Source: Tubiluchus corallicola
Lineage: Eukaryota > Animalia > Priapulida
Assembly: GCA_030141605.1 (NCBI GenBank)
Contig: JAQGDQ010000111.1
Span: forward strand, 186,001 to 250,000
Reading direction: 5' to 3'
Length of the DNA stretch: 64,000 bases
Shown in pieces: positions 7,781 through 64,000 of this stretch. The stretch's first letter is position 1, and every line of letters begins with the position of its first letter. The notes under the pieces are model-generated. The model was given only the letters and a program-made list of their open reading frames with translations, was not told where the DNA came from and made no database searches. Both the position numbers and the translations under genes were made by a program.

Positions 7781-10700
7781 GTGGTTGTCTGAACTGTGGA
7801 CGGTAGAAGTCTTGCTTGGCTAAGCACTAGATTATCTCCATCGCTTAGCTCCATCATGCTGAGTTAAAACGGCAACTGGGCATAAGTTATTACAGTAATT
7901 TGATTGAGACTGATTGCATTATTAAAGTTTGAGTAGGAAGCATCTTCATTCTACAATATTTTCATGAAATGAACAATGTTAAATAACTTCATTTGAGGAA
8001 AGGATTAACTTTGCCGTATATAAAAAATAATTTGTATATAAACTTCAATGCTTAAATCAGAAGTTAATTTTCGCTGTGGCATTGAGTTCTGATGTTTTGT
8101 TATTTGTTGGAAACATGCACCAGATACTCAAAACAGTATCAAGTAAACGTTCAATAAGTACTCAATATTTCAATTTATGTGAAGTGGCATCAAGTACAAC
8201 AGATACTCAGCGCTTAAGCAGCCGGATGTGAAATCACATCAAGACCAAGCAGAATATGCACCTGTAATTAAAGCGCAGGTATGTGAAACAACGCCAGGCA
8301 CACAAGTACAACAAGCACTCAACATATCAAGTACAGATTTGCGAAATAACACCAAAGTACCGTACAATAAGCCTTCAGTACGAAATAGGTAAAAGCACGA
8401 TAGATATTTGACAACAAGTGTAGTTATGTGAAACTGCATGAAGCAAGAATACAACTACTATTCAACATACAAAATAGTTAGAACAAGTACTGAGCTTGTG
8501 AAGTACATTTACAAACTGTACAATACAAGTACAACGGGTACTTGAACGTAGCAATAAAGGTACTTCAAACAACATCGAGTTTTCTACTTAAAAGAACATC
8601 AAATTCAACAGATAATAAATCACAGCTTGAAAGGCATGAAAGCTAACTGTCAGTTTGTGAAATTCATGTTACCTGATTGAGGACACAATTCAGTGAGGTT
8701 GTTGGTGACCTTGAGCGGGCAGGTCGAAATCAAAGGTCCATTTTTGAAAAGTATACGCAACACTAACATATACGTTCGCTGTGAATCAGAGCCACACTTA
8801 ATTGCTCCAATACAGAAGCCCATCTAGCTGACCAGAGCAAAAAACTTCACTTCAACACGTTCGCCCAAAAAGTCCTTCGTGGTGCGTCAACGTCTGGGTG
8901 GTCTTGAAAGTCAACAAATATTTTTTCAGAAATTTTCGCCAGAAAGTTTATATTTTTGGCTGAAAAGGTTTGGAGGTAAATAAACGGAAAACATTCCCGA
9001 CTTGTTGTTTATGAAATTTGTAAATAGTTTATTTCAAGAAAATGATAAACTGTTTACATTACTGCATGCGTTTTTGTCAGTCTTAAGTGCAAGGCTTTTC
9101 TCGCTGAATTCGCGTTTTTAGCTTGTCTGTCAAATGCCTCCAATTTGCTAGGTTTCGCCTTCTTTTTTGGTGAGTTGCGACGCTAAGTAGCGGAAACTGT
9201 TTTCGCTGAAAAAAAGGCATTTATGTAATCCGGTGACGCATATTTACTTGTATGTTGTGTATGTCTTGAAACAATTTTTGGTAAGAGAAATTCCAAACTT
9301 TGCTTAGAAAACAAATGTTATATTCGTTTATGTTTTTTGGGCATGCTCTAGGTGAGGCGCAATGCGTTGCAAATGCAAATCTGGGAAATTACTGAATGAG
9401 AAAAGAAATTGATATAATTTGCCAGAAACAGCACCAGCAATTCTTTGTATTCACACAAACGCAATTTTTTTATGTTTGGCATATAAGTTGGCATTTCTAT
9501 CAAATTCTTGTATCACGCCAAGAATGTATGTTTGGCATGGTACAAGAATTTGATAGAAATCATACTGTTCGGCCGCATCCAAAACAGAATGACACTTTCT
9601 TTGACTTTCTATTAAGGTGAGTCCTTTTCGAACAGTATTTCTTATACGACTGACATGGCGAACGCAACTCTCCGTTATGTAGTTGTTATTGTTTGTGTAC
9701 CCGAGGATAAACAACGAATAGATCGTCTGGAAAATTGATGGTTGTGTTTGAACCAGATGTGCGTGCCTTGGCCCACGACCACCCAGCCAGCAAATAAGCC
9801 GAGAAGAAAATAGAAAAGTCTTGCCCGCGAGGAGGCGCCACTTCTCTCTTGTTTACGGCCCTTACCTTTACCTCATTCTGGCGTCCCCAGGGTTGTGTTT
9901 TAATCAGTATGCTCTGTCTACCGTCAAGATTACAATTTCACTTAACTGTATTTCTTATTGATTTAAAATTACGTCCATGAGTATTACAAAATGTGTCATA
10001 GATATTTTTTGCAGCTATAAAATGTCTTTGGAGGAAGAAAGCTGGAGTTGTTGTTGTTAGCTCAGGAGGGTCTCGTTTACCCCCAAACTCGCGGTCAATT
10101 AGGATGAACCCCGCGCTGATTGGAGATGACATATAATCTGGTGTCTATTTGCATATGTAATCACTGTGTTTTGATAAGATGTAAGTTTGTTGAGTCTGCT
10201 TTTTGGGGATGTTCATGCGGGCTTGGTCGGAAAAACAAGGCGTCTTGCGTCGTCCACGATTGTGCAGGGTCGTAATGTTTCTTGTTTGCCTATGTGGGTC
10301 GAATCACAGTCTTTTGTAGCCTATATGTATTTTAGTGTTCCCACGTATAAGAAGTAGTTCACATCACAGTGTCTTCAGCATTCATGTTTTGAGCCATGCT
10401 TTTTTAAAAATATAAGCAAAAGTCCATGCATATTCCGTTTACAGCAAGATTTCTTACTGTGCGATGGCTCAACTCATTCTTCTGACATTTAGGACTCTTC
10501 TGACATATAGCATGGCATTTGAACGATTTTGGTACTCTGCTTGGTTGCATGAACATGGCTACCGTCACAACAAAATGACCTCATCGACGTCATTATTAGT
10601 GTATGGTTGTTGTGAATGTATACATATATAATCTTTATATGCCATTAAAATACATTGATAATCACTGAATAAAAATTTTACAGAGATGATCAATACGTTA

Positions 10701-57909: not shown

Positions 57910-58144
57910 CAGGGTGTTCAGAAAGTCGTTGTGCACATATCTTTATTAACCAACGTTTCAATATAGAATACAGGAAGTAAATATGAATCAGAATTATAAA
58001 CAATGTTCAAAGTGACCCCCATTAATATCAGTACAGGCTTGTATCTTTCTTATTTTGTTTGTACCAAAAGCATTTTGGGATCAAAGGCTGAAATATTAAA
58101 AAAACATGATTAGAAAAGTCCAGAATGACTTTCCGGACACCCCG
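57910..58144. mobile_element. Tc1/mariner-like MITE
   Basis: TA|cagggtgttcagaaagtc ... gactttccggacaccccg|CA: 18-bp imperfect TIRs with TA on the left and a probably mutated TA on the right. Confidence 0.78.
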
Positions 58145-60970: not shown

Positions 60971-61072
60971 GCGATCATTGAAGCGCCGAATAAAGAACTC
61001 ACCCTAAACGACATTTACAACTGGTTTCAATCCAACTTTCTTTACTTCCGGAAAAACGTGGCCGCCTGGAAG
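60971..61072 (+). CDS. FoxP: FoxP forkhead middle exon, copy A (putative mutually exclusive; phase 0-0)
   Basis: tctttttcag acceptor, gtactg donor; 102 nt, [34 protein letters not shown]. Confidence 0.93.
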
Positions 61073-61133: not shown

Positions 61134-61235
61134 GCTATTATTGAAGCTCCCTTCTATCAGTTGACACTGAGTGAAATTTATCAATGGTTTATGAGGAATT
61201 TTGCATACTTTCGCCAAAATACTCACACTTGGAAG
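61134..61235 (+). CDS. FoxP: FoxP forkhead middle exon, copy B (putative mutually exclusive; phase 0-0)
   Basis: tgtag acceptor, gtacta donor; 102 nt, [34 protein letters not shown]; same length and phase as copy A. Confidence 0.92.
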
Positions 61236-62480
61236 GTACTAACTTTTGTTTATATTATGTGAATTTAACAGTGGAGTTTCGTTCAGTAAAAGTACAGGCA
61301 AATAGGAAACATAGATGTACAGCTGTAGTTCATGTAGAAGACTAAGAGCAGTACCTGTTTAGTAGAAATATTAGTTTCTAACAGTAGAGTCTGTTTTATT
61401 TTATGCAAAATAACCTTCTGTATGTGTGCAGCTTAAAACTGTATAATTAAATTTTCTTACACTTGTGTAATAACAGTAAATTGTTGTTGGCAATTTTGGC
61501 TACAAAAAAGTTTTTCAGTCATACAATGATGTTTCATTCTCGACTTAAATCACTTAGTAAATTTTCTACATGTTTTATGGACCGAGACATTGAGAATAAT
61601 GTGCATTTATTTGTAGGGTACTTTTTAACCCATGCGTGTGTTGCCTTGGCTGTGCAAGTAGTTATTTTTATTAGCCACCTGATGGCGGCACAGAGAAGTG
61701 TATTAGAAATGAGACCATTCCTTCCCTCTTCCTCTATAATGCCATATCTTCTTTTAAAAACATTGTAAAATGAATTTATCCACACTGCAAGTTAGTATTA
61801 TATTTGTCAAAATGCTGATATTCGGCTGCTTTTTGTTGCAGTTTTAACTTATTTCACGTAATTATTTTGTTTAATTAACAGTTGAATGAAGTCATGTTCA
61901 TTTCTGCCACAAGTTTCAAATCTCCATTTTGCTGAATGATAACATCGTCCAGTAAAATACTGATAGAACGCTGTTTACAAAATGTTGCAATAAGTGGGAA
62001 TGTCCACGATTCTCTAAGAAGCTTTAACTTAGTAGGGAGGCATAAGAAGAAATTTTTTGGTAAAAGAGGATAGGATAGTGATGACCCGCAAAGGAGGGAA
62101 TCTTTCTAAATAGGCAGAGTTGATATGTCTGCTTTATCTTACAGCTGTGTTATTTTTTGTTTGTTTTGCAAGAATATTTTTTGCCGGGAAGTTTCAGTCC
62201 AGCGAAATATTGTACATGCAATTTTTTGTTGAGTTGTACTTTAAATTTAAAAATTCTTGTTTTGCCTTGTGTGAAGAAATATTTACAAAGTTTTTTTAAG
62301 TAAAATTGATTTTTATTTGCTGCTTCTAATATGCTCGAACTTCAACAGAAAACTTGTGCATGAAACCCCATGCTATAGCTGCTTATTGTAGTGTTGTTTT
62401 TGTCCAGAATAGCTGTTGCTTGGCTGCCATTGGCTTCTTATAGCTTTGCTATTTGCTAATATTTGTTTCTCATCCCGTAG

Positions 62481-62605
62481 AATGCTGTGCGGCACAACCT
62501 AAGCCTTCATAAGTGTTTTATGCGTGTGGAGAATGTTAAAGGAGCGGTGTGGACGGTCGACGAGATCGAATTCTACAAACGACGGCCTCAGAGGATGTCT
62601 AGCGG
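62481..62605 (+). CDS. FoxP: FoxP forkhead recognition-helix exon, canonical type (copy C; phase 0-2)
   Basis: tttctcatcccgtag acceptor, gtaggt donor; [41 protein letters not shown](G). Confidence 0.96.
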
Positions 62606-62614
62606 GTAGGTGTC

Positions 62615-62702
62615 GTCAGCGTACGTTGACCCCGGCATGTCCTCGAACTTCGGCGGTCGGCCGCCTGCCTTACCGTCGGTTCGGGCAACTTGCCGGAGAT
62701 CA
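62615..62702 (+). other. Intronic RNA stem-loop(s) between exons C and D
   Basis: ccggca (62632-37) pairs with tgccgg (62691-96); cc(t)cgaac with gttcggg; cggcggt with accgtcg (one G-U); ggc with gcc; a small near-palindrome gtcagcgtacgttgac (62615-30) lies just upstream. GC-rich island in AT-rich introns. Confidence 0.75.
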
Positions 62703-62747
62703 TTTCTTCTTTCTAACTGTTTGTCTTTTTTGTTTTTCGTCTCTCAG

Positions 62748-62893
62748 AACGCCATACGTACCAACTTGTCGCTGCATAAATGTTTTGTAAGAATCGAGGA
62801 CGAATTTGGATCCTTCTGGATGGTCGATGACGACGAATTTGCATTGCGGCGCCATCTAACACGTGGCCGACCGCGCAAATACATCGATGTACA
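62748..62893 (+). CDS. FoxP: FoxP forkhead recognition-helix exon, alternative type (copy D, FOXP1 exon-18b-like; phase 0-2, or stop at 62895-62897 if unspliced)
   Basis: ttctaac branch site, long pyrimidine tract, ctctcag acceptor; [48 protein letters not shown](Q); ca|gtaaga donor in the same phase as copy C. Confidence 0.94.
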
Positions 62894-64000
62894 GTAAGAG
62901 TACCATTCAAAAATTTAGACGTGGAAAATTCACAAGTGGAAATCTTCACCACATATTAGTTATCAGTCTACAGACTGTTCTTTTAATGCATTTCCTTGTC
63001 GACCAGAGCAAAATAAGTAATGTGTCTGAAGTTGAGAAAGATCCAGAATTCCAAATTCGCGATCTTGCAAGATATTTGCGACTGACTCATTATTTTGTTG
63101 TTATTTATTTTCTTAGTTGTTGTGTTATAAATTTTCTTCTGGGTGTGGTGAAGGTTTCTGTGCTTGCTTATAAGTGTATTCAGCATGTTGTGTGTAACAA
63201 ATTCTAATTAAATGGATCATGCATGGAGCGAGATACTGTTTCACATACCGAGTTGAATCGATAATAATAATTGGGTCCATCGTACATCTATTAAAGGCAT
63301 GCAGTGAAGTAGTTGAATTGCTTTTTGTGGATATGTTTTGTTGTAACTCAGTTTTATGTGTAGATTAAATAAAATATCTGGCATAGTTTGTACGTGCCAG
63401 GCAGATGAGCATGTTTATTATTACATGTAAGTGCGACTTCGCTAATGTACAATGGACTGTATTTTGTTGGTAGTAGATGTTTGTTCTGCAAAATTTTATA
63501 AATGATAAATATTGTCAATAAATTCTAATCTAATCTGATGTATAACAGGTATAGATCATTCTAGCATCCTGCAGTATTTCGGCTATTGTTTAGTGTGTTT
63601 ATCAATTATTGTTCTAGATCAGTGTACTTAACCTATACGTGCCGGCATCCCCATGGGCGCGAGATATTGTTTTTGAGGGTGTGAGAATTTTCTTAAAGAC
63701 AGCATTTTCGTTTTGCTCTTCGTCATTTAGTGTTTCATAGTTTTTTTTTGTTTCAAGTTGTCAAGTCGTTGAATTTCTTTATACTTTGACTCTACATTCT
63801 TACAATCTTCATCTTTGTCCTTGTTTGGTTATGCATCAGTTTTGGCATAACCTTCTATGCAGATATACGTAGACGTGTGAAAGGTGATTATAAGTCTTCA
63901 GCACTGGAGGTGCAGTATGCAATTTAAAATTTCAGTGGGTGCCTGCATAAAAAATGTTAAGCTTCACTGTTCTAGATTATGTACACTTTTTGCTTTCTGA

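Follow-up and report, generated by a model that had tools for sequence, protein, structure and literature searches.

A GC-rich stem in the intron between two alternative forkhead exons of FoxP is probably not the lock that keeps them apart

What keeps the two alternative exons for the second half of the FoxP forkhead domain from being joined to each other? The pair is about 600 million years old, and the literature searched gave no explanation of how it stays exclusive. A sequence-only reading of the window (the whole 64,000-nt stretch of DNA that was analysed) had proposed that a hairpin in the 142-nt intron between the two exons, here called C and D, enforces their exclusion by shortening the distance between donor and branch site. 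Our analysis suggests that the hairpin, as a computed sequence feature, is real and well placed, and that it is probably not the lock that keeps C and D apart. The fold is computed throughout; the exon pair, the phases, the frameshift and the GC anomaly described below come from the sequence.

By translation and homology searches, the window carries one FoxP gene, on the + strand, of which it includes the 5' part and the middle, with exons that encode the glutamine-rich region, the zinc finger, the leucine zipper and the forkhead. The best named relatives of the leucine-zipper exon are a bivalve and a nemertean (the two named among four matches); a further search gave an abalone as the best of four, with ticks weaker. 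The stretch upstream of the forkhead is of the spiralian form, without the insert seen in insects. From these likenesses, whose E-values are modest, the gene looks like a protostome FoxP, most similar to those of lophotrochozoans and not to those of arthropods. Its forkhead is encoded by two tandem exon pairs, A/B and then C/D, some of whose joints are seen in contigs of X6, one small run whose RNA status is guessed and whose exons are about 5% divergent from the window:

60971..61072, + strand: exon A, first forkhead half, 102 nt, phase 0/0 (translation, tblastn; joint from the upstream exon to A in X6)
61134..61235, + strand: exon B, tandem duplicate of A, 102 nt, phase 0/0 (translation, tblastn; B-C joint in X6)
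62481..62605, + strand: exon C, Drosophila isoform A / FOXP1 exon 18 type, 125 nt, phase 0 in and 2 out (translation, tblastn, X6 contig)
62606..62747, + strand: C-D intron, 142 nt, donor GTAGGT, acceptor CAG (sequence)
62748..62893, + strand: exon D, isoform B / FOXP1 exon 18b type, 146 nt, phase 0 in, internal (homology; donor kept in other loci)

Exons A and B are both present in the X6 contigs, and together with C/D they would make up to four forkhead domains possible. Duplicates of the first-half exon also occur in other animals, with two copies in one locus (L003, 815-1404) and four in another (L012, 1605-3120), the copies lying 344-403 nt apart; L009 (1-81) was grouped with the same observation.

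C and D are homologous exons in tandem, of the NAVRHN and NAIRTN types, that each encode the second half of the forkhead. Homology identifies them as the FoxP A/B (FOXP1 18/18b) pair, and the earlier view of them as mutually exclusive is probably right. Alternative exons of these types have been traced to the base of Bilateria (Santos et al., PMC3002244), and they correspond to exons 7 and 8 of Drosophila FoxP (PMC7776582) and to 16/16b of mouse Foxp1 (PMC8989529). Both exons enter in phase 0 and leave in phase 2, the donor of D being presumably used in this animal. This donor (CA/GTAAGA, phase 2, GT at 62894) overlaps an apparent stop at the end of D. We nevertheless rejected D as a terminal exon and read it as internal, because the same overlap recurs in 14 of the 16 other loci long enough to include it (4 of 20 contigs stop short of it) and because proteins of Haliotis and Tubulanus connect D with the downstream exon that C also joins. 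That downstream exon lies outside the window.

Since the exit phase of C is 2 and the entry phase of D is 0, a C+D join is frameshifted: 13 wrong residues lead to a stop at 62788, which lies 103 nt before the donor of D and so more than about 50 nt upstream of a later junction. A joined transcript that stops this early is a decay substrate by established rules. The phase-2 donor of C is present in 31 of 31 loci that hold both exons. Nonsense-mediated decay of C+D is likely to be a safeguard that needs no hairpin, and the frameshift with its early stop, which the sequence-only reading had missed, makes a hairpin lock unnecessary. In human, 377 of 629 MXE clusters (60%) have non-triplet exons (PMC5740500).

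The intron itself is strikingly GC-rich, as had been claimed, with a GC content of 54%, where six other introns of this gene have 30-37%. In the window 8 clusters come to 0.60 or more, and the one in this intron peaks highest, at 0.67; the segment 62615-62702 has 65% GC, a value reached by 0.05% of all 88-nt windows in the 64 kb. Two helices are predicted in the minimum-energy (MFE) fold:

62615..62630, + strand: short hairpin, 6 bp, about -6.8 kcal/mol, context-dependent, predicted (MFE fold)
62632..62696, + strand: long GC-rich stem-loop, 25 bp, 65 nt, -34.7 kcal/mol, predicted (MFE fold)

The long stem has 18 G-C, 5 A-U and 2 G-U pairs. The helices that the sequence-only reading had listed for a long stem and a small hairpin all reappear in this fold, apart from an arm given as cc-cgaac, which reads CTCGAAC and includes a U-G pair. 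Folding bore out a stable long stem, whose mean pair probability is 0.93-0.94 in 6 of 6 sequence contexts (up to 62300-63100); across the same six contexts the short hairpin varies between 0.36 and 0.97. Within 62300-63100 we found no alternative partners of the docking-selector type for the stem arms, which pair with each other. In the local context the donor (62601-62610) can pair with the branch region (62712-62721), G+1 facing the branch A, with a probability of about 0.45, and this pairing is lost in 2 of 4 contexts. Two YGCY motifs sit at the weak top of the stem; the C-D intron shows no YGCY enrichment (3 against 2.6 expected, 102/200 shuffles), and a YGCY cluster upstream of C was rejected (11 against 8.4 in shuffles, 235/2000).

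How unusual this fold appears depends on the bounds chosen: z is -2.12 for the whole intron (5/200 shuffles), -2.88 from donor to branch (4/1000) and -4.07 for the stem cut out after the fact (1/1000). Among the 150 lowest-energy 80-nt windows, taken from 1598, 7 others reach z -3.76 or lower, so that hairpins of this quality are uncommon in the 64 kb, though this one is not alone. The strongest hairpin of the window is an AT-rich, near-perfect inverted repeat at 9481-9560 (z -7.8), probably the end of a mobile element.

Does the stem recur where the exon pair recurs? A metagenome scan yielded 59 loci with D; 31 of them also hold C, and these collapse to 20 distinct introns that are arthropod-, spiralian-, amphioxus- or vertebrate-like, labels that come from peptide likeness and not from records. 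At 142 nt the intron studied here is the shortest of the 21, its 20 orthologues having 313-1955 nt, and it aligns with none of them. The hairpin has no counterpart in these distant orthologues, which counts against the idea that it enforces the exclusion. Nor are hairpins enriched after C donors, z lying below -2 in 1 of 20 against 2 of 34 control donors (p = 0.15). Two spiralian-like loci, L051 and L039, do have hairpins after the C donor (-37.8 and -23.4 kcal/mol) that together with that of the window are the three most stable of the 21. Their two-sequence consensus has 11 of 23 pairs changed on both sides. We rejected a shared structure for these two, as the result was equalled or exceeded in 39 of 1000 column shuffles and in 4 of the 209 other pairs of introns; with intron lengths of 945 and 671 nt, such stems cannot alone bring the branch near. 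To judge from these loci, the stem is at most lineage-specific, while the exclusion is pan-bilaterian and the frameshift is present wherever both exons were seen.

D relatives were absent from the prokaryote genomes and viral contigs scanned. In nine loci (L037, L038, L040, L047, L049, L050, L052, L053, L054) a D-type exon directly follows the first-half exon, without C, and these loci appear to have retained only the 'alternative' exon. The intron before D is 56-64 nt long in 5 of the nine, so some invertebrates apparently splice introns with less than 50 nt between donor and branch. AG-free zones upstream of D are often long in the 20 orthologous introns, reaching 312 nt with a median of about 83 nt, which hints that the branch points for D may be distant in many animals.

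The proposed shortening depends on where the branch site of the intron lies:

62710..62717, + strand: branch-site consensus TTTCTAAC, A at 62716 (intron +111, -32 from the end), presumed in use (motif)
62718..62747, + strand: polypyrimidine tract and acceptor of D (sequence)

The branch consensus with its A at 62716 is present as had been noted, and the distances given with it, about 110 nt linear and about 30-45 nt unpaired, agree with the computed 110 and 29-45 nt. A weaker candidate, TTGAC, stands at +24 inside the short hairpin, and an AG at about +93 precedes the acceptor. The linear distance of 110 nt from the donor to the best branch motif is thus above the minimum of about 50 nt, itself a linear, mammalian figure (PMC7969005). 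Folding reduces the unpaired linker to 45 nt with the long stem alone and to 29 nt with both helices, or to 33 nt if, following published footprints, pairing is barred in 10 nt at the donor and in the 20 nt preceding the branch. The 29-nt value is partly built in, because it was computed with open footprints of 9 + 19 nt, which make 28 nt the floor. For comparison, a modelled yeast A complex gives a minimum linker of 42 nt for a stem between donor and branch, in a setting where stems aid splicing (PMC12350175).

Short computed linkers are also generic, which further weakens the case for enforcement by the hairpin. The linker is below 42 nt in 54 of 60 shuffles, with 37.7 +/- 4.1 nt in shuffles against 32 nt for the real intron; it is 41-47 nt in five long introns of the same FoxP gene, and 45 nt or less in 8 of the 13 long orthologous introns that have a branch candidate (7 of 20 had none). 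What sets this intron apart is local stability and not the linker number: the computed fold comes to -0.39 kcal/mol per nt, whereas the 13 orthologous introns give -0.11 to -0.28 and the five long introns of the same gene -0.18 to -0.24.

The strongest form of the proposal is a hard steric lock, in which both helices form, the donor-branch distance falls below the spliceosome minimum and C never joins D. We regard this as unlikely; the broader claim of mutual exclusion by folding, that a stem alone drops the donor-branch distance of a spliceable 142-nt intron below that minimum, is doubtful to the same degree. The 29-33 nt left by both helices do lie below both the 42 nt modelled for yeast and the mammalian value of about 50 nt, and opening the linker to 50 or 55 nt costs 18-20 kcal/mol, a value reached in 7 and 6, respectively, of 100 shuffles of the intron's middle part. 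The 61-nt A-B intron points the same way, with 29 nt to its best branch candidate by plain length, and the A-B and C-D linkers are the lowest two of 7 introns. Opening to 42-45 nt is another matter: 77 and 84 of 100 shuffles cost as much as or more than the real intron, and a block at that distance would rest on the -6.8 kcal/mol hairpin, which starts at +10, at the U1 edge. With opening easier at 42-45 nt and harder at 50-55 nt, the steric verdict turns on the threshold of this animal. The floor of 28 nt, the 56-64-nt introns before D and the frameshift all tell against a lock, and our literature search gave no case of a stem causing such a block. If it were true, the gene would have two steric locks in tandem, linear for A/B and folded for C/D, and melting of the weak hairpin would act as a switch. 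The stronger steric case in this gene is that of A/B, whose intron is 61 nt long, whose exons stay in frame and which has no backup from decay.

A second way to read the stem is as a neutral leftover, a GC-rich insertion or decayed element in a short intron that folds from its GC and has no role, with decay and trans factors doing all the exclusion work. The compaction of shuffled bases, almost equal to that of the real intron, is what this reading would lead one to expect, and the 7 other windows of similar z and the lack of the hairpin in distant orthologues agree with it. We hold it to be rather unlikely nonetheless: no second copy of the stem was found in the window or in the orthologous loci (best E 4.8), no Rfam family or tRNA matches it, and the highest GC peak of the window is placed clear of donor, branch and tract.

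Sequencing runs give some view of the locus in use. Three X6 contigs run from the upstream exon to A, from B to C, and from C beyond its donor. The last of these leaves the window sequence at the C donor and continues into 15 letters that are neither D nor found in the window, which indicates that donor 62606 is used and that C can skip D. Transcripts in X6 thus include C without D, and no contig holds D; contigs do not show absence. The same-sample run X3 spans the C-D intron, with a T missing at 62726 and two further differences within 62250-62912. X4 has a gap over 62567-62775, X5 ends at 62555 and X6 has no contig on the intron or D, none of which implies absence. Two same-sample DNA runs that cover the stem region gave no extra contigs for it, unlike the short repeat at 57955-58060, copies of which turn up in numerous further contigs from X2, X4 and X5.

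The C-skipping contig bears on an opposite view of the stem, as a zipper that leaves a permissive 45 nt and promotes C-to-D splicing, the unproductive transcript then lowering FoxP via decay. The yeast definition of a zipper is at least 6 bp, at least 10 nt from the donor and 20 nt or more away from the branch, with a linker of 42-85 nt (PMC12350175). The long stem, which has 25 bp, starts 26 nt from the donor, stops 19 nt short of the branch A and leaves a linker of 45 nt, comes within one base of this; with its end pair frayed it stands 20 nt before the branch with a linker of 47 nt, and the second helix sits in the linker. Short structural donor-branch distances accompany efficient splicing in yeast (PMC2536676). 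A linear distance of 110 nt, however, needs no zipper, and the sole contig of guessed RNA origin has C skipping D, so we consider this very unlikely. The same yeast results, with the 45-nt linker above the modelled 42 nt, also speak against the earlier claim that shortening by the stem blocks splicing.

A role outside splicing seems to us barely credible. It would have the intron retained, the hairpin after the TAG at 62607-62609 stimulating read-through into D, or the hairpin giving rise to a small RNA. After that TAG the intron is free of stops and in frame with C and D (62610-62897), and a 65-nt hairpin has the size of a pre-miRNA. Yet the frame is kept by length in only 4 of 20 orthologous introns, and a search with the intron-plus-D frame returned no protein with a similar intron-derived stretch among 110 matches. 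As for a small RNA, the Rfam comparison gave no match, a Drosha substrate would usually be longer than 25 bp, and the hairpin ends off the splice sites. Open C-intron-D frames were also seen in other animals (P0001 and P0030), both found because they are open.

The explanation that we tentatively prefer, at somewhat less than even confidence, is that the C-D stem acts as a lineage-specific modulator on top of frameshift decay. The predicted 65-nt stem would slow splicing into D, while exclusion of C+D would be secured by the frameshift and early stop, with the transcripts cleared by decay. Such a brake might work by crowding, as the predicted structure takes up almost all of the room between the footprints of U1 and U2 and stops 19 nt short of the branch A. 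Alternatively, the loop of the stem may be presented to a splicing regulator, as with MBNL on mammalian 18b; MBNL1 is described as the main suppressor of FOXP1 18b, the ortholog of D (PMC8189919). Being entirely intronic, the hairpin cannot loop out either exon, but it can alter distance, narrow the U2 landing zone or bind protein. Whether modulator or neutral, it would be one more lineage-specific intronic hairpin.

Among known systems, the sequence-only reading took its parallel from arthropod Dscam exon 17, a precedent that fits poorly with a FoxP gene that looks spiralian and not arthropod-like. In the 2013 work of Yue et al., hindrance at that exon is said to come from linear branch proximity or interval size, and structures there reportedly mask or approximate splice sites and bias choice, and do not act by stem-shortening. 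Exon 17 is likewise a two-exon cluster for which steric hindrance and RNA structure are invoked (cited in PMC7969005); the available text of PMC12962786, PMC6071210, PMC6027157 and PMC7404189 holds no detail on it beyond listings. The docking-selector type of Dscam exon 6 differs from our stem, whose arms pair with each other (0.93-0.94).

The closest relatives are the FoxP A/B and FOXP1 18/18b pairs (PMC3002244), which are the same tandem second-half forkhead exons, the C and D peptides matching both types. Compared with its orthologues, the intron here is set apart by its 142 nt and GC-rich stem, against 313-1955 nt in the 20 others, and the gene by its duplicated first-half exon A/B, which the accessible text of Santos et al. 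(PMC3002244) does not describe. OGDH 4a/4b (PMC7969005) shares a short intervening intron within an exon pair, and its branch points also lie in a hairpin. The distance there and in human clusters is linearly short, 25-41 nt (PMC7969005, PMC5740500), with 57 of 629 human clusters below 50 nt (PMC5740500), whereas here it is 110 nt and short only when folded.

In the literature found, mostly outside subscription journals, there was no report of intronic structure in FoxP or of a stem whose shortening of the donor-branch distance blocks splicing; for stems in this position it describes only the helping direction. The yeast zipper of RPS17B (PMC2536676, PMC12350175) resembles our stem in lying wholly between donor and branch, in its 45-nt linker and in poor conservation of primary sequence across relatives. 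Yeast zippers, as described in these sources, occur mainly in long introns, are not part of an exon pair and are tied to efficient splicing, the opposite of the role proposed here. With 45 nt left by the long stem and 29-33 nt by both helices, the C-D intron falls on either side of the modelled 42-nt limit, which makes it a convenient test piece.
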